Counted from the first letter of the stretch, positions 2,679 through 24,559 are shown. The stretch is 24,559 bases of DNA from a virus (IMGVR_UViG_3300025880_000109:1-24559); one strand, 5' to 3'. Numbers and translations are program-made. Notes: a model not told the origin generated them from the letters alone.

Positions 2679-2681
2679 AAT

Positions 2682-2934
2682 GCTATGTTTGGTAACAAGG
2701 CCTAACTACCCCGTAACAGCCTTAGGCCGCTAATGCCATTTCTGGCGCATAATTGTCGTTTGCAATTATAAAGTTTGACCAATAACGCAGTCATCCGGTA
2801 AACTCCACTTCACTACAACACCAGTCGATCCTATTTCGACCCCATCATAAGCACACTCAGTAAATGTGTTTATGGTGGAGTCGTCGGGTACTGCCCCCGA
2901 GTCCTGTATGTGTTCACGTTGCTTCAACGTCTAC
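2682..2934 (-). ncRNA. ssrA: Circularly permuted (two-piece) tmRNA
   Basis: Acceptor piece comes first: T-arm UCGGG-GGCAGUA-CCCGA, then CGACUCC-ACCA (ends 2873). An intervening hairpin spans 2872-2844. The coding piece starts GGGGUCG at 2843. Acceptor stem has G3.U70. Outer ends are approximate. Confidence 0.95.
2722..2763 (-). other. tmRNA tag reading frame ANDNYAPEMALAA*
   Basis: GCA AAC GAC AAT TAT GCG CCA GAA ATG GCA TTA GCG GCC TAA. ANDN start and ALAA C-terminal degron. Confidence 0.95.
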
Positions 2935-2938
2935 ATAT

Positions 2939-2969
2939 TATTTATACAGTCAAACGGTATTCTTGTCAA
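2939..2969 (-). promoter_or_regulatory. tmRNA promoter, sigma70 -35 plus a -10 that is also the full T4 late consensus
   Basis: TTGACA (2969-2964), N17, TATAAATA (2946-2939). Confidence 0.8.
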
Positions 2970-2996
2970 CCATTATTATACTAAATATCTCCAATT

Positions 2997-3359
2997 ATGT
3001 TACAACATAAACATTTGATAGTTAGAGCAGAAGTAAGTAACCCTCCAAGGTACGAGCAAACAATTATCGATTGGTCAACTAATCTAATCCGCGACATTGG
3101 TATGAAAATAATGATGGGACCGTTTGCAAAGTACTGTGAAATGAAGGGTAACCGAGGACTAACTTGTGTTACTATTATTGAAACTAGTCATGTTGCAATA
3201 CATGTATGGGACGAAGGTGCCCCTTGTTTAGTACAACTTGATGTATATACTTGTGGTGATTTAAATAAGCAAATAATTTTTGATGCTTTAGAAAAGTTTG
3301 ATCCAGTCAAAATTGATTACAAATATCTTGACAGAGAAAAAGAGTTTATAGAACTTTAG
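2997..3359 (+). CDS. Pyruvoyl-dependent decarboxylase, S-adenosylmethionine decarboxylase (SpeD/SpeH) family
   Basis: KHLIV start, GLTCVTIIETSHVAIHVWDE and QLDVYTCG motifs. Substrate uncertain, so no symbol given. Confidence 0.85.
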   Translation: MLQHKHLIVRAEVSNPPRYEQTIIDWSTNLIRDIGMKIMMGPFAKYCEMKGNRGLTCVTIIETSHVAIHVWDEGAPCLVQLDVYTCGDLNKQIIFDALEKFDPVKIDYKYLDREKEFIEL

Positions 3360-11036: not shown

Positions 11037-11714
11037 GCCGTGTTTCTCATAATATGCATAAACCCTATTCCACCATTCTTGTTCCCATTCTTTAAATTCA
11101 TGTGGCCATAGGTCAAATTGTTGGTATTCACCTGCTCTGCTACACATAAAGATGTGTCCTTCACAGATATTAGTATCATATATTTCGTTGTGTGCGATAG
11201 CATATGCTGTTAATTGTAAAAAATAATCTTGTACCCACTCTAATTTCTTAGGCTTATTAGTTTGTTTAAAGTCCATAATACAAGGTTGCCCTTTGTATTG
11301 TCCTACAAGGTCAGTAGTTCCTGCATACATTTGTGGAACATACAAAGCAACTTCACTGCCCCATATTTCATCTACATCTGATAGTGCTTGTTCTTTTACT
11401 TGTGTTGCCATCATGTGTGCTTGTTTAGCATAAGGATTACTGCCTGGTTCAGCCCACGTGCCAAACTCAACATAATCTTCTAAGTATTTGTGCATACGTG
11501 TTCCAACACCTGCGGCTTCTGTTACAATTTCTTGTGCTTTAGTTTCGCCTACACGTTTACGCCAAGCAATAAGATGTGTCTTGTCTTTTGTGGCGTCTAA
11601 GATTGTAGTAACGCTTGCTACAGCGTGGCCATCAGGGGTCAAGTACTTACGCTTACCATCTACGCTTTTTCGTTGAATTGTTTGATAATCAAATTTATTT
11701 GTTATTAGAGTCAT
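11034..11714 (-). CDS. PD-(D/E)XK exonuclease (phage/MGME1-like)
   Basis: SVTTIL, GTRMH, SEVAL, YAGTTD, MDFKQT and QLTAYA motifs. Start revised to MTLITNK (ATG 11714). Confidence 0.88.
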   Translation of the reverse strand: MTLITNKFDYQTIQRKSVDGKRKYLTPDGHAVASVTTILDATKDKTHLIAWRKRVGETKAQEIVTEAAGVGTRMHKYLEDYVEFGTWAEPGSNPYAKQAHMMATQVKEQALSDVDEIWGSEVALYVPQMYAGTTDLVGQYKGQPCIMDFKQTNKPKKLEWVQDYFLQLTAYAIAHNEIYDTNICEGHIFMCSRAGEYQQFDLWPHEFKEWEQEWWNRVYAYYEKHG

Positions 11715-12030
11715 CGACTTCGTCCCAATCATGTTGCATAGCAAATGGATCGCTATAAAAAGGATCCACTGTACTGAAAGGATCATCTTGTGCATCTACT
11801 TCAGTTACTTCTGGAACGTAATGTTTAATCATATTTTCGACACCAAGTTTAAGCGTCATAGTACTGCCTGAACATCCTGAACAGGCTCCGCCTAGTTCAA
11901 GTAATAGTCTACCGTCTTTATATTCTAGAAATTCAATGTTGCCGCCATGACTTGCAACGCCAGGCTTAACATGCGATTCAATTAACTCTTTAATTTGTTT
12001 GATGATTTCCTCATCAGTTCTTGTTGTCAT
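11695..12030 (-). CDS. NifU-C/Nfu-type Fe-S cluster carrier (single Nfu domain)
   Basis: VKPGVASHGGNIEF...LGGACSGC..STMTLKLGVENMIKHYVPEVTEV. AGGAG RBS. Confidence 0.92.
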   Translation of the reverse strand: MTTRTDEEIIKQIKELIESHVKPGVASHGGNIEFLEYKDGRLLLELGGACSGCSGSTMTLKLGVENMIKHYVPEVTEVDAQDDPFSTVDPFYSDPFAMQHDWDEVDDSNNK

Positions 12031-13948: not shown

Positions 13949-15067
13949 TTATTTCATACTCTGTAGTTGCTTTTTTAGCATATCTAATTCGGCTTTCTTA
14001 GCCTTAATTTGCTTTTGTGCAACGTCTTTCTGCATTTTCTGCATCTTGCGTTGCTGTGCTTGTGCTTTTGGATCAGTTGGGTCTGCGCCTGGTTGATCTG
14101 CGGCCGCTTGTGCTTGCTTTGGTCCAGGTCCAGGTACTATACCTGTTGCTGGTGTTGCCATTTGGGTGCCTGTTGCTCCCTGTGGTTTATTTGGTACATC
14201 AAATACTTCTGGGTCTGACTTTTTATATCCTGTACTTCCAGGTCCACCTCGTCCTGCTAGTGCCGCTAGTCCTGCTAGTCCTAATGCTCCTACTCCTAGT
14301 CCTCCTAGTCCTATGCCTTTACCTATTCCTCCAGATTTTTTAGGAAGTGTTCCTGTACCTGTTCTTGACTTAACACCCGGTGCTTGCTTTGGCTTAGGTG
14401 CTTGTTTAGGATTGGTACGTGCTTGTGGTTTAGGTGCTTGTTGTGGTTTAGGTACAGTACTACCTGGTTTAGGTTGTGCTACTCTTGGTGGTGGTTGTGT
14501 TCCTGGTCTAGGTGCTGTTGTACTTGCCGGTGGCTTAGGTGCCGCTGTACTAGGTGCAGGTGTTGTTGGTTGTTTAGGAGCCGCTGTTGCTCCTGGATTT
14601 GTAACTTGTGGATTACTTACTCTTGGCTTTGGTGGCTGAGTTCTTATCTTAGGTGCAGTACCTGGCTTTGGAGTTGCCAATGCTGGTGGTTGCATTGTAC
14701 TAGGTGGTGCTGTTGTACTTGCCGGTGGCTTAGGACTTGCTATGCTAGAAGGCGGTGCTGGTTGTCCTGGCGCACTAGTTTGTGGTGCCGTAACTGCTGG
14801 GTTTTGTGTCTTACCTGTTCTAGGTTGATTTCTACCTTTGCTTGTAGCCTTACCATCACGCTTAAATGCATCTTTACCTTTTTTAATTAAATTTTGTATA
14901 ACAGGTTTGCCACGCTTAATAAGTTCTTGCCCACCTTTTTTAATAATTGGTCCTGCCGCGCTTGCCGCTCCTCTTGCTAGTGCCGGTATTAGGGCAAGCG
15001 GATTTTCATTAATGATTAGATCAAGACGTTCGCCTTTGTCGTTTTTGTTAAACTCGTCAAATCTCAT
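13949..15067 (-). CDS. Pro/Ala/Thr/Lys-rich low-complexity protein with Gly-zipper hydrophobic segment and C-terminal coiled coil
   Basis: MRFDEF leader, TAATG coupling, GIGKGIGLGGLGVGALGLAGLAALAG segment. Confidence 0.75.
   Translation of the reverse strand: MRFDEFNKNDKGERLDLIINENPLALIPALARGAASAAGPIIKKGGQELIKRGKPVIQNLIKKGKDAFKRDGKATSKGRNQPRTGKTQNPAVTAPQTSAPGQPAPPSSIASPKPPASTTAPPSTMQPPALATPKPGTAPKIRTQPPKPRVSNPQVTNPGATAAPKQPTTPAPSTAAPKPPASTTAPRPGTQPPPRVAQPKPGSTVPKPQQAPKPQARTNPKQAPKPKQAPGVKSRTGTGTLPKKSGGIGKGIGLGGLGVGALGLAGLAALAGRGGPGSTGYKKSDPEVFDVPNKPQGATGTQMATPATGIVPGPGPKQAQAAADQPGADPTDPKAQAQQRKMQKMQKDVAQKQIKAKKAELDMLKKQLQSMK
14511..14734. repeat. Exact 29-nt direct repeat (14511-14539 and 14706-14734) encoding PKPPASTTAP
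   Basis: ggtgctgttgtacttgccggtggcttagg twice, 195 nt (65 codons) apart. Confidence 0.9.
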
Positions 15068-15393
15068 TAACTAGTCCTTCTCTTGCCTGCAAATCTTTTC
15101 TTAGGTCTAACGTTAATACGCTTCAAACGTTTACTTGCTGGATTGGCTCTTTTAGTTTTCTTTGTATTAATTTTAATTTTGTTTGGAGTTTTGCGTTTAG
15201 TTTTAGTAAGTTGAATCTTTGCTTTTTGATTTAAAGGTTTATTACATGTTGCGGCTCTTGCAACAATACGTCCTTTACGTATTCCACTTGTGCAACGATA
15301 CTTACGTACTTGTTTACCACCTGAACGACTCCATATAGTTCTAACTGCTTCAACTACTGGGTCTTCTGTTATGTAAAATTCACGTAACAACAT
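15067..15393 (-). CDS. Highly basic protein, paralog B
   Basis: VRKYRC..G.R.GRIVA....C.KP.N and TKR.NPAS shared with the neighbouring gene. Confidence 0.75.
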   Translation of the reverse strand: MLLREFYITEDPVVEAVRTIWSRSGGKQVRKYRCTSGIRKGRIVARAATCNKPLNQKAKIQLTKTKRKTPNKIKINTKKTKRANPASKRLKRINVRPKKRFAGKRRTS

Positions 15394-15696
15394 CTAACGT
15401 CTCGCTTTATTCATTGCCTTAAGTCTTCTACTTGCGGGATTAATACGTTTAGTTCTTCTTGATTTTCTAGCAATACGTTTACCTAGTCTAGCCTGTGTAC
15501 GCTTTAAGGTATAACGTGCTTTCATATTAATAGGTTTAAAACATGCGCTAGGTGCGGCAACAATACGTCCGTGGCGAGTACCACCGGAACACCTATACTT
15601 ACGTACGACCTTGTTGCCTCTGCGTCCCCAGATCTGTTTTTCATCTAGTTCAAATTGCTCGCCCGCGGGGTCAGTAATGAGTTCTCTTAAGTTCAT
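15394..15696 (-). CDS. Highly basic protein, paralog A (possible T4 gp68-like core protein)
   Basis: 38/75 identical residues to paralog B in an ungapped manual alignment. Confidence 0.75.
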   Translation of the reverse strand: MNLRELITDPAGEQFELDEKQIWGRRGNKVVRKYRCSGGTRHGRIVAAPSACFKPINMKARYTLKRTQARLGKRIARKSRRTKRINPASRRLKAMNKARR

Positions 15697-16920: not shown

Positions 16921-17793
16921 CTATTTACGGCTCTTTTTTGCTCTCTGATGCAGTGCTCTTAGGAGATTTATGTATGCAGGTCCTGCTTTTACGATGTCAT
17001 CTAGCATTTTAACCGCCGGAATGTAGCCTTGTACGAACTGTCCAGGTATACTTCTGCCTTGTTTTGCTAGTGCTAGGAAGTTTTTAGTACGCATAACGTT
17101 TTCTGTACCTACTACATAGCGATATAAACTAATATCACGTGCATCTGTGCTGATATCTGGTACACTTACTGTAGGTTCATTGTCTGCTACTCTTGCTGTT
17201 TCTAGATCATTTGTTGCGGCTAATTTACTAAGGTCATCAACTAAATCACTTGTACGTAGTTTTGCTCTTGCGGCAATTAATAATCTTGTGATAGTGTTTT
17301 CTTTGTCTTTAGTACTTAGGCTTCTATATCTTGTAAGATTTCTTCGTACAATTTTATAGTCGGCATTGCTAATATTCAACCCACCTTCAAGTTTGATAAG
17401 GAATTGTGAAGTTTGAGTATACTGATGACTACTTGCAATACTTTTTAACCATCCATTAAGTTGCATCAACGGCAAGTTAGTTCTTTGCCTCATTGCTTTT
17501 GCGGCACTAGGATCTTTTAGTTTGTTCATAGCATCTTCGTCGCCATTTACAAAGTAAGCAAGATTATATAAATCTGTGCCACTCATCCTATACGCTTTAA
17601 ACGTATCGTAGCCTGTAGTTCTTTTAGCATACTCACTTGCTGTACGTCTAAAATAAGCATATTGATTTAGTGCTTCTAATATCAATACACTTAGATACAA
17701 TCGTTCACAACAATCTGTATACGTCAGACTCTTGAGCGTACCTGTACTACGAGTCATTCGTGCCTCGTGCATGTCCTTAATGAATTCCATCAT
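16921..17793 (-). CDS. Hypothetical helical protein, putative internal virion protein
   Basis: 290-aa ORF with short leader MMEFIKDMHE-AR. Confidence 0.7.
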   Translation of the reverse strand: MMEFIKDMHEARMTRSTGTLKSLTYTDCCERLYLSVLILEALNQYAYFRRTASEYAKRTTGYDTFKAYRMSGTDLYNLAYFVNGDEDAMNKLKDPSAAKAMRQRTNLPLMQLNGWLKSIASSHQYTQTSQFLIKLEGGLNISNADYKIVRRNLTRYRSLSTKDKENTITRLLIAARAKLRTSDLVDDLSKLAATNDLETARVADNEPTVSVPDISTDARDISLYRYVVGTENVMRTKNFLALAKQGRSIPGQFVQGYIPAVKMLDDIVKAGPAYINLLRALHQRAKKSRK

Positions 17794-17799
17794 TTGTTT

Positions 17800-18129
17800 T
17801 TATTCTTCTTCTGGTTGCTCTGGCTCAGGATCTTTAACACCTGCACCTGGTTTTACGTCTGCGTTTTTAACTTTAGCAATAATTGCTTTTGCCATTTCAA
17901 CATCTACGTTTGCATCTTTTAATGCTTCACCTGGTGTCTTAGGACCAAATGCTGAACCTAGTTTACCAAATGACGATCCTAATGCCGCCGCTTTGTTGAA
18001 CTCAACATCTTCCCATTCAAGGCCACTTCCTGGCTCTAATGCTGAAGCAATCTTTTGCCCCATTCTTACATACGGCATAAGTTTTGGATCTACATCGTAT
18101 GGTCCTTCTAATAAATCTGTAATTTTCAT
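17800..18129 (-). CDS. Hypothetical protein with MKITDLLE leader
   Basis: AAGGA RBS, acidic Pro-rich tail. Confidence 0.75.
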   Translation of the reverse strand: MKITDLLEGPYDVDPKLMPYVRMGQKIASALEPGSGLEWEDVEFNKAAALGSSFGKLGSAFGPKTPGEALKDANVDVEMAKAIIAKVKNADVKPGAGVKDPEPEQPEEE

Positions 18130-18139
18130 TTTGTTTTCC

Positions 18140-19381
18140 TTATCTTTCTACTGCTCTATTTGCGGCAGAGAATGTTTTGCGTGGTACTAATTTAATATCG
18201 CCCTTAGGATGTGCTAATACATATCCTTCACCACCTGGCTGGTCACCTATTGATTGTTTGACATCTCCACCTTGACTGTCAAACTTAGCAATAATATCGT
18301 CTTTGGCTTGCATAATAGCAGTAACAACATTCCACATTGCTTTGAAATGTCCCATATGCTCTTTTATATATGCAAGTACATTAACTTTCTTCTTTTCACT
18401 AACCTTTGCTGTTTGTAACCATTTAGCAAAGTCTCCGCCTAAGTTATCTAAACCTGTATCAACTTTACTGTTGATGTAGGCATAAAACAATTTAGGCAAA
18501 TCTGTCATTTGTTTTGCTCTAAGACTAGGCTCATCAAGCATTGCATCTAGTCCTTGTGCATTTTGTTTTACTACTGCTGTTGCTCTATCTAATATTGTTG
18601 TGTCTACTTCTACTGGTGCTACTGTTGTTACACTTGGAACTACAAACACATCATTGCCTTGGAATATATCTTTATTTGTAAAAGGACCTTCAGCACCTTC
18701 TGAATCTACTTCTCTATGTATTACAATACCTGTTGTGCTTTTGCCAATACGTTTGCCTAAGTCACTCTTAACATCAATATTATATGTTACAGTTTGAGGT
18801 TTAAATGTGTAGTGTCCGTCTTTTACTTCTGGTGTGTTATAATACAACAAGTCGCCTTTGAAGTATCCTCTGTAATCTTTTGGAACTGCTTTTTCATACA
18901 AACTAAAAATTGTTGCCATCTTATCTGCGAATGCTATACGGCCCGGATCATCTCTGAGTTTGCCACCTGAACGACCGAGCAACTCTTGCTTAATCGCATC
19001 TGGACTTTTGGTTCTTCCAACTCCGCCTTTTTTGCCGAAGCCTGATTTGTCTGTAAATATAAACTCTCCATTTTCATCGCGGCCAAAAATGAGCGCGGGA
19101 GATCCATCCCATTTAAGTGTGACATTCTTGTGATCCTCCTTAGCCATATTGCGTAATGCTTCTAATGCTCGCATTGCGCCTTTGCTACCTTCCCAAAATA
19201 CAATATCTTCTGCATGTTGTATACGTGCATCTGCTTCATACAGACTTTCGCCTACAAGTTTACCTCTAGCAGGATGTGGAGTTTCGTTGCCGCCGGGTTT
19301 GCTTTTCTTCTTAATGGCATCTTTGCCTTTAAGTTGTCCTGCCTTACCTTTTTTATATTCTTTAAATTCTACGTAACGCAT
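18140..19381 (-). CDS. ATP-dependent ligase-like nucleotidyltransferase (KxDG; DUF6267-like, RNA-ligase-like)
   Basis: Motif I TLKWDGS (K90), FKGDLL, GEGYV and IKLV.R in ligase order. No OB domain apparent. Confidence 0.7.
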   Translation of the reverse strand: MRYVEFKEYKKGKAGQLKGKDAIKKKSKPGGNETPHPARGKLVGESLYEADARIQHAEDIVFWEGSKGAMRALEALRNMAKEDHKNVTLKWDGSPALIFGRDENGEFIFTDKSGFGKKGGVGRTKSPDAIKQELLGRSGGKLRDDPGRIAFADKMATIFSLYEKAVPKDYRGYFKGDLLYYNTPEVKDGHYTFKPQTVTYNIDVKSDLGKRIGKSTTGIVIHREVDSEGAEGPFTNKDIFQGNDVFVVPSVTTVAPVEVDTTILDRATAVVKQNAQGLDAMLDEPSLRAKQMTDLPKLFYAYINSKVDTGLDNLGGDFAKWLQTAKVSEKKKVNVLAYIKEHMGHFKAMWNVVTAIMQAKDDIIAKFDSQGGDVKQSIGDQPGGEGYVLAHPKGDIKLVPRKTFSAANRAVER

Positions 19382-20555
19382 TTATAATCTCGTTTTCTTG
19401 TGTTTGTATTTTCTTTTTCATCCACGCACTATTTGGATCTGCTTCGTACTTGTCTACAATTTCTTTTGCACTTGGCATCTTTGCTAAAATACTTTCTACT
19501 GAACCTAAGTCACTTGCTGTTGCATTAGGGCCTATTAATTGTTTTGCAATATTTTCTAAGTCGTTACTTACAAGTTCGTTTGTATCTCTATTAACTAAAC
19601 CTTTGTAAGGGCTCCACTTGAATCCTTTTTCTTTTGCAAGGTCTGCAATCATAATTTGTTTGTGTACACCTTTGTATGGTGAACCTTTAGGTATATCATG
19701 TACATGAAACTTACTTGCTGTCTCGCCGTTGTCAACAACCATAATGTCAACTTGCTGTGGAGTATCACCTATAGTTGTTTTTACATGGACAATTTGTCCT
19801 GTCTTTTTAGTTTCAAACCCTGCTTGTTGAAACATCTTTTCTAATTCTATTTTTGCAGTTTTAACATCAGGTGCTTTTAAATTTTTGATTAGTTGTCCTG
19901 CATCTGCAATCATGTCTAAGTCACCACTCATCTTACCTGGTGTAGGAGTTGCACCTGATCCAATTGGTAATGCTTTAACACCTGCTTTGGTCATTACACC
20001 ATTAATCTGTTTCATCATATCTGGTATAAGTTTTTGATCAAAGTCTGCTGTTCCTGGAAAAATGTTTCCGCCTTCTTTTAGAATATGTCCTTTAACATTA
20101 ATACTTTCATTTGCATCTTTCATTTTAGGATCTTTGATGCTGTTATATAATTTTACGCCACGCTTAACATCTAAAGGTTTTAATGATCTGCCATCTTCAG
20201 TATTACCATTCCATTGTTTCTCTACTGGATCCCAACTGTATATTTCTTTTCTTGGAGTTTTAAATACTGCTACCGTTGGCATATTACTTGGATCTAATAC
20301 TTCTATTTTTCTATTAGCAACAGGCTTTGTTACAACTCGTGTACTTTTTTTAGTAACTGTTTTTTTATCATCTACTTTTTTCTCATCTGGTCCGCGACCA
20401 CCTACTGCACCTTGCATAGTTTGAATTGCTTTCATAGGAAAACTACCACGTACAGCATCATCAGCCTTTTTAACCCAACTATCGTTTGGATTTGATTTAG
20501 TTTTTGATGCTTTAGATTTCTTAGGTGCTTCGTTTAGTAGATCAGTTATCTTCAT
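19362..20555 (-). CDS. Pol-beta-superfamily nucleotidyltransferase with long basic N-terminal extension
   Basis: IGS (G199-S200), GDLD (D212, D214) and QVDIM (D270). Confidence 0.75.
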   Translation of the reverse strand: MKITDLLNEAPKKSKASKTKSNPNDSWVKKADDAVRGSFPMKAIQTMQGAVGGRGPDEKKVDDKKTVTKKSTRVVTKPVANRKIEVLDPSNMPTVAVFKTPRKEIYSWDPVEKQWNGNTEDGRSLKPLDVKRGVKLYNSIKDPKMKDANESINVKGHILKEGGNIFPGTADFDQKLIPDMMKQINGVMTKAGVKALPIGSGATPTPGKMSGDLDMIADAGQLIKNLKAPDVKTAKIELEKMFQQAGFETKKTGQIVHVKTTIGDTPQQVDIMVVDNGETASKFHVHDIPKGSPYKGVHKQIMIADLAKEKGFKWSPYKGLVNRDTNELVSNDLENIAKQLIGPNATASDLGSVESILAKMPSAKEIVDKYEADPNSAWMKKKIQTQENEIINALRRI

Positions 20556-20805
20556 TTTTAGATTCCATTACTTTTGACATTACTCTCTTAAATTTACGTG
20601 GATCCCCAGTTCTAATAGAATTTAAGAACCTGCGTTCTAATTCGTTAGCAGTAGCATCATCATAAGTTTCAGCAATTCTATTTAAAAGATTAATCGCACT
20701 TTCGATAATATTATTGCCTGTGGCTTCAATTAAGTGGTCGTTATGCTTCTGTGAACGCCCAACTGTATTCAATTCTTGCAATATGCTTCTAGTACGTTTT
20801 TTCAT
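20542..20805 (-). CDS. Hypothetical helical protein, first gene of the late block
   Basis: GGAG RBS, TAAATA upstream. Confidence 0.75.
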   Translation of the reverse strand: MKKRTRSILQELNTVGRSQKHNDHLIEATGNNIIESAINLLNRIAETYDDATANELERRFLNSIRTGDPRKFKRVMSKVMESKNEDN

Positions 20806-20822: not shown

Positions 20823-20843
20823 TATTTAGCGTTAGAATAAATA
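20823..20843. promoter_or_regulatory. Back-to-back divergent TAAATA elements
   Basis: Minus-strand TAAATA at 20828-20823 and plus-strand TAAATA at 20838-20843. Confidence 0.6.
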
Positions 20844-20869: not shown

Positions 20870-21628
20870 ATGTCAATAAACGAATTGAATTTCAAAGAAC
20901 GATCCCTATTATTTGCTAAACTTTCAAGTATTGCTTATAGTAACATAAAAGAAGCAAAAGGTCAAGTAAAGAAATTAGGGTTTACAACTGTGGAATTCTA
21001 CAATAAAGATGGGGCGCAAGCATATCGTTTTATGAATAAGACTGATATTGTAATTGCATGTCGTGGAACACAACCGACAGAATTTAATGATTTAAAAGCA
21101 GATTTAAAAGCAACACCAGTAATGGCTGAAACTGTTAGTAGGGTACACAGAGGATTTAAGCAAGAAGTAGATGATCTTTGGCCTGATGTGCAAGAAGATT
21201 TACTTCGAAAAGTTAATTTAAATAAAACACTTTGGTTCTGTGGACATAGTTTAGGTGCGGCAATGGCTACTATTATGGCAAGTCGTTGTATGTATGAAGA
21301 AGAACTAAATGACCCTATTGAACTTTATACTTACGGCTCACCGCGTGTGGGTTGGAGGGGTTACTGCAATAGTTTAAACGTAACACATCATCGCTGGAAG
21401 AACAACAACGATATTGTTACAACTGTTCCTCTTGCAATAATGGGTTATGTGCATCACGGCAATCAGCATTACTTAAATGCTTATGGCAAATATAGAAAAC
21501 CTACAGGCTGGCAGATGTTTAAAGATAGACTTCGCGGCATGTGGATGGGAATTAAAAAAGGTAAGATAGACAACTTTGGTGATCACTCTATGGCAGAGTA
21601 TATCAAACACATTTCTAACTTAGACTAA
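20870..21628 (+). CDS. Class 3 lipase (alpha/beta hydrolase)
   Basis: IACRGT, VHRGF, GHSLGAA nucleophile elbow, YTYGSPRVG, NNNDIV..VP and DHSM..Y. Start revised to ATG 20870 (AGGAG RBS). Confidence 0.93.
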   Translation: MSINELNFKERSLLFAKLSSIAYSNIKEAKGQVKKLGFTTVEFYNKDGAQAYRFMNKTDIVIACRGTQPTEFNDLKADLKATPVMAETVSRVHRGFKQEVDDLWPDVQEDLLRKVNLNKTLWFCGHSLGAAMATIMASRCMYEEELNDPIELYTYGSPRVGWRGYCNSLNVTHHRWKNNNDIVTTVPLAIMGYVHHGNQHYLNAYGKYRKPTGWQMFKDRLRGMWMGIKKGKIDNFGDHSMAEYIKHISNLD

Positions 21629-21813
21629 GACTCACTAACTTTTTTGTTGTAAGCCTCTTCAAAGCCTTCCATGCCATATTCTGCTCTTTCATTATTCCCC
21701 CAAAGTCTTTTGAAATAGCCATCATATGAACTAATAATAGTTTCTTTGGTTGTGTTAAGATGGCCTTTTGTCAACCAGAACAGCCGGCATGCTTCTTTGA
21801 AGTCAGGTTCCAT
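21625..21813 (-). CDS. Hypothetical protein
   Basis: TAATG coupling to prs. Confidence 0.65.
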   Translation of the reverse strand: MEPDFKEACRLFWLTKGHLNTTKETIISSYDGYFKRLWGNNERAEYGMEGFEEAYNKKVSES

Positions 21814-22772
21814 TAGACAAACAAAGAACTAACTGATTCTTCATTTGTAACTCTACGCATTGCTTCTCCAAATAATTGACTCACACTCACTTGTCTTGTT
21901 TTCTTACAGTTCTTAGGACAACGGTTAGCAATTGAATCGGTTACTACCAATTCATCTAGTACACTTTTTTCAACCTTTTGGCATGCTTCGCCTGACAGTA
22001 CGCCGTGTGTAATATATGCTCTAACACTCAATGCCCCTGCGTCCATAATTGCTTTAGCCGCATTACATAATGTACCACCCGAGTCAATAATATCATCAAC
22101 TAGAACAGCATGTTTACCTTTAACATCTCCGATCAAATTCATTACTTCACTCTTGCCTGCTTCAGGACGCATCTTGTCTACAATAGCAATGTCACCGTTG
22201 AACATATCAGCAAACTTCCTAGCACGAACAACACCGCCTGCATCTGGTGATACAAAAACTGTGCCTTGTTGATTAACCTCTGGGTCATCAACATAACCAA
22301 TACTACGTTTGATGTCTTTGGCAAACACCACACGGCTTGTTAAATCGTCAACTGGAATATCAAAGAAGCCTTGTATCTGTCCTGCGTGTAAATCCATAGT
22401 TAAGATTCTATCTGCTCCTGCTGTTACTAACAAGTTAGCAACTAGTTTTGCTGTAATAGGAGTACGACTTGCACTTTTACGATCTTGTCTTGCATAACCA
22501 AAATAAGGAATAACTGCTGTAATACGACTTGCACTCGAACGTCTTGCCGCATCAATCATAATTAACATTTCCATTAGATTATCATTTACTGGACTACTTG
22601 TACTCTGTACTATAAACACATCTTCACCGCGGATGTTTTCCATAAACTCTACACTAGACTCGCCGTCAGCAAAAGTTGATACTGTTGCTGGGACTAGAGT
22701 TGCAAAACAATGTTCTGCAATCTCTTGTGCTAATTGAGGATTAGCATTTCCTGTAATGATTTTCATTTTCAA
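21813..22772 (-). CDS. prs: Ribose-phosphate pyrophosphokinase
   Basis: FADGE, YFGYARQDRK, DLHAGQIQGFFD, VSPDAGGVVRA and VDDIIDSGGT motifs. Confidence 0.97.
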   Translation of the reverse strand: MKMKIITGNANPQLAQEIAEHCFATLVPATVSTFADGESSVEFMENIRGEDVFIVQSTSSPVNDNLMEMLIMIDAARRSSASRITAVIPYFGYARQDRKSASRTPITAKLVANLLVTAGADRILTMDLHAGQIQGFFDIPVDDLTSRVVFAKDIKRSIGYVDDPEVNQQGTVFVSPDAGGVVRARKFADMFNGDIAIVDKMRPEAGKSEVMNLIGDVKGKHAVLVDDIIDSGGTLCNAAKAIMDAGALSVRAYITHGVLSGEACQKVEKSVLDELVVTDSIANRCPKNCKKTRQVSVSQLFGEAMRRVTNEESVSSLFV

Positions 22773-23521
22773 GTTGTTCCCTTTCTAATAGTTTGGTTAT
22801 ATTCAATTGCGGTGTTTAATATACTTAACTCTACACCTTGTCGGTTTGCACTGGTTGTGAAAGCCTTTGCATCTTTAGGGAAACAATGTCCACCAAAGCC
22901 TCGTTCTTCTGTAATTCCTGTGTGACTAGAAGTTATTCTGCTGTCGTTACCTACTACTTTTGCAACTGCTTCATAGTCTAAGTTATATGCTTGACAGTAA
23001 TCATATACTTGATTAAAGAAAGCAACCTTTGTTGCTAAAAAACTATTGCGTACTAATTTTGCTGTAATTAATGCTTCTGGGTCAGTAACTTCTATATCAA
23101 TCTTACCTAATGCTGTGATAAACACATCTGCCCAAAAGGATGTGTTGCCGCCTCCTAAATAGATTTTATCCTGTAGTTGAGCATCTGTTTTCCAATGTGC
23201 CGCACGTAAGAACTCTGGACTAAATGTTAATGGCTTGTTAGGGAATACATGCCTTAGCATATCCCACCCTTCTATTGATATTGTGCTTTTAATTAATATA
23301 GGTACATGAGGTGAATCTTCTATAACATCATACACGTTGTCCATATGACATCCTCCATGCGATCCTTCTGGAGTGCTTACGCAAACAATAATTGCATCTG
23401 CGTGTCTAAGGTCACCATAATGTTCTAGTGCAGGATCATATATAATTAAGTCGTGATAATCTTTAAGTATTAATTCATGTGCTTTGCCAACATAGCCGTA
23501 GCCTGCTATTCCTATTTTCAT
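22769..23521 (-). CDS. UDP-glucose/GDP-mannose dehydrogenase family protein lacking the C-terminal domain
   Basis: GYGYVG, CVSTP, IKST, SPEFL and GFGGHCFPKD. Start revised to MKIGI (ATGA overlap). Confidence 0.88.
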   Translation of the reverse strand: MKIGIAGYGYVGKAHELILKDYHDLIIYDPALEHYGDLRHADAIIVCVSTPEGSHGGCHMDNVYDVIEDSPHVPILIKSTISIEGWDMLRHVFPNKPLTFSPEFLRAAHWKTDAQLQDKIYLGGGNTSFWADVFITALGKIDIEVTDPEALITAKLVRNSFLATKVAFFNQVYDYCQAYNLDYEAVAKVVGNDSRITSSHTGITEERGFGGHCFPKDAKAFTTSANRQGVELSILNTAIEYNQTIRKGTT

Positions 23522-23766
23522 CCTATCATCCAATTATAAACTGCTCTCATTGCAAGTAACATATACATAAGTTCCATCATTGCTCTTGGAATGTCTTTGT
23601 CTTTGACTGCAAAGTAAATCCACATTAAACAACTGATGCAAGCCATTGCCCATCCTATCGCTTGTGTGTCAGTATTAGCATCTGACAAAACATATGCGGC
23701 GGCTATGGCTATTAGAAATCCTAACCATCTACCTTTGTCTAGTTTTTGATAGAACCTTATTTTCAT
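23518..23766 (-). CDS. Three-TM membrane protein (PnuC/SemiSWEET-like half-transporter architecture, putative)
   Basis: Three hydrophobic helices, GW....I....WI and ...YNW pattern. Confidence 0.55.
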   Translation of the reverse strand: MKIRFYQKLDKGRWLGFLIAIAAAYVLSDANTDTQAIGWAMACISCLMWIYFAVKDKDIPRAMMELMYMLLAMRAVYNWMIG

Positions 23767-23772
23767 AATACT

Positions 23773-23801
23773 ATTATACTTTCTCTACTTTATATTGTCA
23801 A
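23773..23801 (-). promoter_or_regulatory. Perfect-consensus sigma70 promoter, leaderless geometry
   Basis: TTGACA (23801-23796), N17, TATAAT (23778-23773), 6 nt, ATG. Confidence 0.88.
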
Positions 23802-23803
23802 AT

Positions 23804-23833
23804 AAAAAGGTAGTGCCGTTGCACACTACCTTT
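23804..23833 (-). terminator. Rho-independent terminator
   Basis: Minus strand AAAGGTAGTG-TGCAACGG-CACTACCTTT followed by TT. Confidence 0.85.
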
Positions 23834-23841
23834 CCAATATA

Positions 23842-24559
23842 TTAATATCCGTTTGGTACAATGACATAGTGTATCATTAACACCACGCCTACTGATGCAC
23901 CTAAGCCTATCATCATCTTGAAGAAGTCTTTGGTCACCAACGGAAACACTGTCTTAAACTTTTCCTTGCCTGTCATCGTTGCCATAGCAAGTTCTCGTCC
24001 ACACAATAAACCTACGAACACCCATGTTGTTGACATAGGTATATCGTTTAGTTCTTTAAAGAAGAATAAGATCAACCAGTACACACCATCAATGATAGTT
24101 GCTGAACGCACATATCTTGTGTTGTGTTTTTCTAGTACAATCTTTTGGATCTTACCACCGCCCTCTTTAAACATAAATGCAAGTCCTACAACAAACACAA
24201 GGCTCACTAGGATCATTAGGTCCCATGGAACTTGTCTTGGAAGGAACACGGCAATGTTAGCCATGTCATGACTGAGCCAAGTAAACCACAAGAAGCCTGT
24301 TGTTACCCATTGTGCTATTCGCCATGCTTTCTTATGTTGTTCTTTGACAGGCTTTGCTTCGTTTAGTAGTTTAGTAACTCCTATCCAAATAATGTATGCC
24401 GCGACTGCCGCGACAGCATAGCCCATCATGCTTTTCATAAGCATCTTCTCTAGTACAAATGTACTTGCAAAGGCACTTAATACTAAAAAAGAAGTACTAA
24501 CTGGTACTCCTATTCGTGTAAGTATTAATAATAGTCCTGGTGCCATTGCGTGATACCAT
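23842..24559 (-). CDS. PiT/PHO4-like inorganic phosphate transporter, 5' end outside the window
   Basis: Multi-TM protein with repeated GVPVSTS / IPMSTTW..VG motifs and SHDMAN. Frame is open to the window edge. Confidence 0.7.
   Translation of the reverse strand, partial: WYHAMAPGLLLILTRIGVPVSTSFLVLSAFASTFVLEKMLMKSMMGYAVAAVAAYIIWIGVTKLLNEAKPVKEQHKKAWRIAQWVTTGFLWFTWLSHDMANIAVFLPRQVPWDLMILVSLVFVVGLAFMFKEGGGKIQKIVLEKHNTRYVRSATIIDGVYWLILFFFKELNDIPMSTTWVFVGLLCGRELAMATMTGKEKFKTVFPLVTKDFFKMMIGLGASVGVVLMIHYVIVPNGY

Follow-up and report, generated by a model that had tools for sequence, protein, structure and literature searches.

The polymerase X of African swine fever virus (ASFV PolX) pairs with an ATP-dependent DNA ligase in gap repair, and bacterial LigD, which acts in nonhomologous end joining, combines a primase-type polymerase and a ligase with an OB domain in one protein. 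Family X polymerases and ATP-grasp ligases both need a 3'-OH and a 5'-phosphate in duplex, and together they would fill and seal. Here we describe two overlapping open reading frames (ORFs), ORF A and ORF B, whose products may form a pair of this kind. They lie in IMGVR_UViG_3300025880_000109:1-24559, a virus record of 24.6 kb, the whole of which is the window of our analysis. For jumbo phages, Iyer et al. 2021 report Rnl1/Rnl2, RlaP and CCA enzymes (PMC7824862). Phage T4 injects head cargo, IPI-III and Alt, whose N-terminal propeptide ends in L/I-X-E and is cut by gp21 (PMC9026906). A full-text literature search for DUF6267, the family of ORF A, returned no paper, and no description of the A-B pair was found in the literature searched, which held few subscription papers (the supplement of Iyer et al. 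2021 may list the families); in the available text of a 2026 jumbo-phage review the term "nucleotidyltransferase" is absent (PMC13282480). The two genes are as follows.

18140..19381, minus strand: ORF A, 413 amino acids, DUF6267 (PF19782; Pfam E 5.9e-39)
19362..20555, minus strand: ORF B, 397 amino acids, residues 162 to ~360 predicted to be a minimal polymerase-X-like palm and thumb (Foldseek, VIA, profile)
19920-19922, 19914-19916 and 19746-19748, minus strand: catalytic codons of ORF B for D212, D214 and D270, respectively (sequence)

ORF B shares with ASFV PolX a minimal palm-and-thumb family-X fold (Z 9.3, root mean square deviation [rmsd] 3.9, 156 residues aligned), but it has neither the FTGS motif nor the template arginine; A lacks an OB domain and carries a large helical insertion, and the two genes are adjacent or fused, with protease-type sites. 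In fused A/B forms, polymerase and ligase activities (predicted here) are joined in one protein as in LigD; unlike in LigD, B is PolX-like, A has no OB domain, and no Ku was recognised in the window. In jumbo phages, RlaP (PF10127) and Rnl1/Rnl2 likewise combine a transferase of the Pol-beta superfamily with a genetically linked ATP-grasp ligase, whereas B has a PolX thumb and no PF10127 match, A scores under the Pfam RNA_ligase cut-off, and the pair has leaders and lies in a likely late operon. The best structural matches of A, namely, Naegleria Rnl, trypanosome REL1 and T4 Rnl2 (Z 7.1, 6.1 and 5.9), are nick-sealing RNA ligases with motifs I, III, IV and V and, like A, without OB; A differs from them in its identity of 10-12%, an insertion between motifs III and IV, an end right after motif V and an extra HxED motif. 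The leaders recall those of IPI-III and Alt, but here targeting and cleavage are putative and the cargo would be a predicted polymerase/ligase pair. Head cargo described so far acts by blocking or redirecting host enzymes; repair on arrival by a packaged polymerase and ligase would be a counter-defence of another kind.

The conserved two-gene module is real, as seen in its anatomy, conservation, linkage and fusion. On the predicted models of both folds, A and B would provide a form of polymerase-plus-ligase repair that draws on two families to which the literature searched assigns no function. Packaging of the module in the head has good indirect support, with virion presence taken from papers on distant relatives. 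Tentatively, and with somewhat less than even confidence, we read the module as a packaged fill-and-seal pair acting on nicked or gapped nucleic acid, most likely incoming phage DNA.

The predicted enzymes

ORF A matched PF19782 with 134.9 bits (cut-off 27) over model positions 4-374 of 376 and belongs to PHROG 455, in which no function is assigned. Four ligase motifs were found: K90-W-D-G (motif I, with the Lys90 codon at 19112-19114), G176-D177 (III), E385-G-Y-V (IV) and K397-L-V-P-R401 (V). Conservation was scored in 47 dereplicated relatives out of 112: K90, D92 and G93 are kept in 46, the remaining one being a truncated ORF; D177, H222, E385, G386, K397 and R401 are kept in all 47, and the extra H56-x-E58-D59 motif is kept in 46. 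Motif V is usually KxK; that of ORF A reads K..R, without the second lysine. The C-terminus lies 16 residues past K397, leaving no space for an OB domain; the OB domain of ATP-dependent DNA ligases is thus missing, and there is no PF01068 match. In the predicted model (mean pLDDT 87), motifs III and IV are separated by an inserted helical bundle (residues ~261-369).

Among the PDB rows returned by Foldseek for ORF A, T4 Rnl1 ranked first (E 0.056). In a wide structural search the top 18 rows were all ligases, of RNA and DNA (Z 7.1-5.3). Naegleria Rnl was the best match (rmsd 4.6, 182 residues aligned), a fungal tRNA ligase reached Z 6.0 and the best DNA ligase Z 5.8, and capping enzymes followed at Z 4.2-4.9. 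ORF A is thus predicted to have the ligase/capping-enzyme nucleotidyltransferase fold without an OB domain. No match above cut-off was obtained with Rnl1/Rnl2-type family profiles (PF09414 or Rnl1), and a solved-structure sequence search with the A and B alignments gave nothing significant; the ESM Atlas returned own-family clusters and, beyond these, a single cluster in which 33% of the members have NTP_transf_2. PA5oct (gp228; Foldseek E 1e-4), Atu_ph07, Phosso and RsoM2USA encode more distant A-like proteins that share the His..KxDG..EGxV..K pattern, the Atu_ph07 protein bearing the apparently automatic UniProt name "RNA ligase". Since their profile link to DUF6267 is weak (probability 59%, E 9e-5), the evidence that they provide is indirect.

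ORF B matched no Pfam or PHROG family. Its catalytic motif consists of G199-S200, eleven residues, D212-L-D214 and then D270, each aspartate being present in 126/126 aligned wide relatives. A spacing of 11 is long for the family, the loop being shorter in 23 of the 37 dereplicated relatives. Every listed Foldseek row was polymerase lambda (best E 6e-6), and in VIA polymerase beta aligned with Z 9.9 and rmsd 4.4 over 172 residues. Polymerases beta, lambda and mu, TdT, ASFV PolX and Thermus PolX aligned over 156-172 residues, compared to only about 90-105 core residues for terminal uridylyltransferases (TUTases), CCA enzymes and CD-NTases. In a profile comparison, the alignment of 37 B relatives matched three PolX sequences from metagenome-assembled genomes (MAGs) with 87% probability (E 3.7e-6, 100 columns), in an alignment that takes in both aspartate motifs and the thumb. 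By fold, B is thus predicted to be a minimal PolX that lacks one feature of family-X membership, FTGS/arginine. As a separate observation, one MAG locus (L189, G008:C16:38204-41389) holds a canonical PolX domain in a 1327-amino-acid open frame, possibly another phage polyprotein.

A preliminary description of this DNA had placed here two genes overlapping by 20 nucleotides and encoding nucleotidyltransferases of different folds, one with hGS-x11-DxD...D and the other with ligase motifs I, III, IV and V without an OB domain. Both genes (minus strand, overlap at 19362-19381) and both sets of motifs were recovered, the predicted models and structural matches support two folds, and the catalytic residues proved near-invariant (46-47 of 47 for A; aspartates 126/126 for B). 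Its assignment of B to the Pol-beta/CCA/cGAS superfamily survives in the Pol-beta triad, while the CCA/cGAS identity was dropped for a PolX-like one on the basis of the alignment lengths.

Linkage, fusion and distribution

For linkage we took the best 80 of at least 596 A loci, together with the best 80 of 290 B loci; these are close relatives and not independent. For 60 distinct A proteins, B was adjacent in 51, nearby in 3, fused in 2 and missing in 2, the contig ending in 2, so that A has B neighbouring or fused in 56/58 informative loci. For 59 distinct B proteins, A was adjacent in 46, nearby in 4 and missing in 8, with one contig end; B thus has A as a neighbour in 50/58. One of the records scored as missing, G002, carries DUF6267 far off on the same contig. 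The co-occurrence proposed earlier as a check on the pairing is therefore seen from both sides.

An A domain was found within 32 of 150 B representatives (best 150 of 403), in both orders. The other Pfam partners in 79 long representatives were cytidylyltransferase-like (4), GNAT (2), amidoligase (2) and NT5C (2) domains, as well as Tad3, sigma-70 region 4 and the RuvA C-terminal domain; this variety looks like a polyprotein cargo system. One such protein, P0317 (1002 amino acids), begins with a cytidylyltransferase-like region and also contains DUF5661, Tad3, an inhibitor of Thoeris (E 9e-29), a divergent KxDG domain and a B domain.

These partners bear on a second reading, in which the pair, with the HIGH-type "cytidylyltransferase" of many relatives, caps ends or nucleotidylates proteins or small molecules as anti-defence cargo. 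The cytidylyltransferase-like, GNAT, amidoligase and Tad3 fusions would suit it, as would the unusual motif V and the H56-x-E58-D59 motif of A; the KxDG fold takes in capping enzymes, but ligases outscored these in the structural search. In its favour, the virions of S-SZBM1 (PMC9146016) and S-CREM2 (PMC10665884) contain a cytidylyltransferase. Against it, a Pfam scan recognised no cytidylyltransferase in the window, and the PolX thumb suggests a duplex substrate, as established for family X. We regard tagging or capping as quite improbable.

DUF6267 is a family of 1877 clusters at 90% identity, and the member from P-HM1 was matched by 471 phage records, mostly cyanophages. Cyanophage DUF6267 genes have no leader, stand directly after helicase and mazG, and adjoin a cytidylyltransferase gene. 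In Flavobacterium immuto phages, B stands beside a different transferase: at L171:4869-8502 a B relative is followed by a 907-amino-acid protein without a DUF6267 match, in which a second Pol-beta-type domain is joined to a cytidylyltransferase-like domain. Searching five cultured-phage records with alignment A2 gave no match and missed a known relative too, so that absence is not demonstrable there. From genome contigs, 39 candidates reduced to 5 loci, all in MAGs; because the MAG loci with A have phage-type neighbours, we claim no cellular copy. Four loci (L177-L180) show the phage block in GTDB MAG assemblies, probably misbinned phage contigs, and L177 has a fused B-A gene. An ordinary DNA ligase (PF01068) is encoded as a separate gene in relatives G003 and G005, and A is therefore not needed for replication in these relatives; the idea that A replaces the replicative ligase was rejected for this clade.

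Leaders, junction sites and virion association

Both proteins begin with extensions that carry cleavage-type sites, and a conserved motif precedes the operon.

19235..19381, minus strand: leader of ORF A, residues 1-49, predicted propeptide, with F6-K-E8 and L47-Y-E49 flanking a lysine-rich peptide (cleavage inferred)
20073..20555, minus strand: N-terminal 161 residues of ORF B, with an L7-N-E9 leader, a beta domain (residues 85-146) and L159-K-E161 before Gly-Gly
20542..20805, minus strand: 87-amino-acid gene heading the operon, PHROG 11854, annotated virion structural protein (E 6e-14)
20823..20828, minus strand: TAAATA motif, 18 nucleotides upstream of the 87-amino-acid gene (sequence)

In the models, L47-Y-E49 of A and L159-K-E161 of B lie in low-confidence linkers just ahead of the folded domains. 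In T4, gp21 processes head cargo by cutting after L/I-X-E (PMC9026906; PMC3012670); for the junction test we widened this motif to hydrophobic L/I/V/M/F-x-Glu. Such a site stands directly before the Gly-Gly of B in 38/39 internal and 66/68 N-terminal copies (background 1.5%; 28 domain hits could not be parsed), and 16 natural B forms start at the junction glycine. Within 11 residues before the His motif of A it was found in 23/25 internal and 3/4 N-terminal copies (background 12.5%; 2 unparsed); the profile contains the site columns, so that a slight bias towards them is possible. A looser test, hydrophobic-x-Glu in the first 14 residues, scored 72/82 for B and 71/78 for A, against 23/54 for exonuclease and 12/24 for NifU controls. 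Because it separated cargo from controls poorly, we relied on the fixed-position junction test.

The CTS-like leaders and basic extensions ending in L-x-E noted in the preliminary description are thus present, but the long basic extensions are lineage-specific, 25 or fewer residues preceding the motif in 83/109 B and 81/104 A ORFs. The small beta domain of ORF B (window 20118-20303, minus strand; block pLDDT 69-94) occurs only in long B forms, and since it is predicted to fold, the B extension does not consist of a basic propeptide alone. The lysine-rich peptide in the ORF A leader is shared by 43 A-family and 3 B-family proteins; in the latter (polyproteins P0274, P0284 and P0330), it occupies internal positions with Glu sites on either side. 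As a side suggestion, it may be a portable small cargo or packaging module.

The 87-amino-acid gene adjoins B directly upstream in most loci. TAAATA, presumably a T4-late-promoter-like motif, lies 50 or fewer nucleotides upstream of the operon's first gene in 92/93 distinct upstream sequences, compared to 159/4980 random windows. Over the whole window the motif is not enriched (26 seen, 37 expected); it is conserved in position only.

Published virion lists include the B relatives of 2/2 cultured phages and the A-like relatives of 1/4. PA5oct gp231 and Atu_ph07 gp65 match the B profile at about E 1e-21; the former is flagged ESI-MS/MS in GenBank (PMC7318152), and the latter, assigned to its gene by position and mass, was found in virions with 10 peptides and 36.8% coverage (PMC6102473). 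On the A side, RsoM2USA ORF438 is among 10 named virion bands (PMC8504454) and, of the four A-like relatives with virion data, it alone has a Glu-site leader, a match that fits packaging but rests on four cases. ORF438 is listed at 51.69 kDa, compared to 62.4 kDa at full length and 53.5 kDa if cut at both Glu sites; this was not counted as evidence of cleavage, the source of the mass being unstated and the capsid value being the uncut mass. Virion lists may also contain contaminants, as the S-CREM2 authors note (PMC10665884). The packaged, protease-matured pair envisaged in the preliminary description thus gains from the Glu sites, the late-operon context and distant relatives in virions, and loses from the single A-like protein in four lists; the case for packaging is weaker for the ligase-like partner than for the polymerase-like one. 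Separately, Atu_ph07 gp57-63 (L169:8558-14387) are genes of ~250 amino acids with near-identical short Glu-ending leaders, all virion-detected and likely a head-cargo array.

The absence of A-like proteins from 3/4 lists would agree with a third reading, in which B alone is packaged, A would serve late in the infected cell as a ligase in DNA maturation or recombination, and the linkage would stem from late expression common to both genes. The leaderless cyanophage DUF6267 genes after helicase and mazG would also agree with it, as would the lack of a known g30 ligase in cyanomyoviruses reported by Clokie et al. 2010 (PMC2984593) and, with most of subgroup 2.1 likewise lacking a known DNA ligase, by Iyer et al. 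2021 (PMC7824862); PF01068 was found in 0/2 cyanophage records. As a separate observation, the stand-alone ligase DNA-binding domain named by Iyer et al. (AAX44695.1) has unrelated annotated genes as its neighbours in P-SSM2. Against the third reading, A in this clade carries a leader and is frequently fused with B, a Glu site preceding it (the 23/25 internal copies above), and its relatives hold an ordinary ligase as well. We give the third reading little credence.

Proposed activity and genomic neighbourhood

In the packaged fill-and-seal reading, A and B would be expressed late from one operon and loaded into the prohead, where a T4 gp21-type protease would cut after E161 of B and E49 of A, releasing enzymes of about 26 and 40 kDa; the same protease would split fused A/B forms. 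Injected with the phage DNA, B would extend a 3'-OH by one or a few nucleotides via D212/D214/D270, and A would form Lys90-AMP, transfer AMP to the 5'-phosphate and join the ends. Phage DNA is favoured as the substrate because of the PolX thumb, the timing implied by packaging, and the fact that no RNA end-healing enzymes were recognised nearby.

Several results weigh against this reading. Foldseek returned no PDB match to the ORF A model at E 0.001 or better, and Z 7.1 is only middling, yet in agreement with the conserved motifs. The closest folds, the top six matches, are RNA ligases, and to our knowledge every DNA ligase carries an OB domain. The distant A-like proteins matched Pfam RNA_ligase weakly (13-24 bits, cut-off 27; E 0.002 and 6e-5). 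For B, the Z scores of PolX (9.9) and of TUTases and CD-NTases (9.3) are tied, and it is aligned length that separates the groups. An insert takes the place of the FTGS thumb motif, and the template-contacting arginine of the thumb, which we take to be Arg283 of polymerase beta, corresponds to A304 in ORF B and to Ala, Ser or Asn in 114/126 relatives; templated DNA filling by B is thus uncertain, and B may be untemplated or use nucleoside triphosphates. B relatives matched none of the cyanophage records, and since cyanophages carry DUF6267, A would be able to work without B. PA5oct gp228, Atu_ph07 gp66 and S-SZBM1_141 are not in the available virion lists (S-SZBM1, PMC9146016). Both gp231 and gp65 are leaderless yet virion-detected, so a leader is not needed for their virion association. 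A gp21-type prohead protease was found in 0/5 fragmentary records of the clade, uninformative at 16-18% completeness each, as was a gp23 search in fragmentary relatives, which gave no match; Atu_ph07 encodes a gp21-type protease, gp204.

Part of this evidence points to a packaged RNA-repair pair, in which B restores 3'-OH nucleotides and A ligates RNA, like RlaP and Rnl. We consider this possible though doubtful. It is the main rival and follows repair of phage DNA closely in our ranking because A is nearest to RNA ligases and has no OB domain and because RlaP offers a precedent; the missing FTGS motif and template arginine of B also agree with it. RlaP adds 1-2 nucleoside monophosphates to damaged RNA (PMC12776372) and occurs together with RNA ligases in jumbo phages (PMC7824862), but B has a PolX-type thumb and 0/69 of its alignment members matched PF10127 at E up to 1. 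In addition, to act on nuclease-cut RNA, ATP-grasp RNA ligases depend on kinase and phosphoesterase helpers (PMC7824862), whereas the 37 scanned ORFs of the window include no recognised end-healing kinase or phosphodiesterase and, apart from two NT5C-type HAD matches, no helpers stood among the Pfam partners of the 79 long relatives. tRNA genes were present in 1/19 loci scanned. The RNA or tRNA repair suggested in the preliminary description thus keeps a place among the candidate functions, weakened in that no end-healing enzymes were recognised in the window.

A bolder form of the fill-and-seal reading, which we think unlikely, would make DUF6267 a new OB-less DNA ligase family and the "missing" ligase of T4-like cyanophages, shipped in jumbo phage heads with a minimal PolX and activated by protease, with B a zymogen that needs a freed Gly-Gly N-terminus. 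If this were true, injected DNA cut by host nucleases would be mended ahead of any phage gene expression. The module offers a testable function for a very common phage family without an assigned role and bears on the puzzle of T4-like cyanophages without a recognisable DNA ligase (PMC2984593; PMC7824862); an OB-less ligase and a ~26-kDa polymerase could also serve as tools. Cultured phages with relatives (PA5oct, Atu_ph07, Phosso and P-HM1) make testing practical.

Three further features of the window were annotated.

2679-2988, minus strand: permuted transfer-messenger RNA (tmRNA), alphaproteobacterial type, phage-encoded (Rfam RF04321 and RF01849; tag ANDNYAPEMALAA)
16921..17793, minus strand: 290-amino-acid gene of the same conserved block, no family matched
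17800..18129, minus strand: 109-amino-acid gene after ORF A, with a leader of the same kind (sequence, conserved block)

The preliminary description had proposed that the tmRNA complements the enzyme pair. This was rejected: the tmRNA lies 15 kb away, outside the operon, ARAGORN found a tmRNA in 0/19 loci scanned, and the tmRNAs detected by Rfam in 2/5 long related records are unlinked to the A/B operon. A permuted tmRNA is also present in the related records G002 and G003. From the tmRNA type, the host is probably an alphaproteobacterium. Since related records of 53-113 kb were rated only 16-53% complete, the data point to large phage genomes, about 350 kb for most relatives, and gene order is similar to that of PA5oct, Atu_ph07 and Phosso. 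Pfam and PHROG scans of the 37 ORFs identified ribonucleotide reductase, phosphoribosyl pyrophosphate (PRPP) synthetase, NifU, a tail-spike-like gene and three PHROG "virion structural" genes.

In the same late block, a Pro/Ala/Lys-rich low-complexity protein of 372 amino acids (13949-15067, minus strand) accounts for the local GC and AT-skew peak. Two neighbouring Arg/Lys-rich proteins of 108 and 100 amino acids (15067-15696, minus strand) have leaders and similar C-x-x-G..G motifs and are possible DNA-condensing head proteins. Host-like genes lie at 1720-2535, 2997-3359, 11695-12030, 20870-21628 and 21813-24546, and the host-like set comprises a porin-like gene (by eye), S-adenosylmethionine decarboxylase, NifU, class 3 lipase, PRPP synthetase, UDP-glucose dehydrogenase and a weak PHO4-like transporter.

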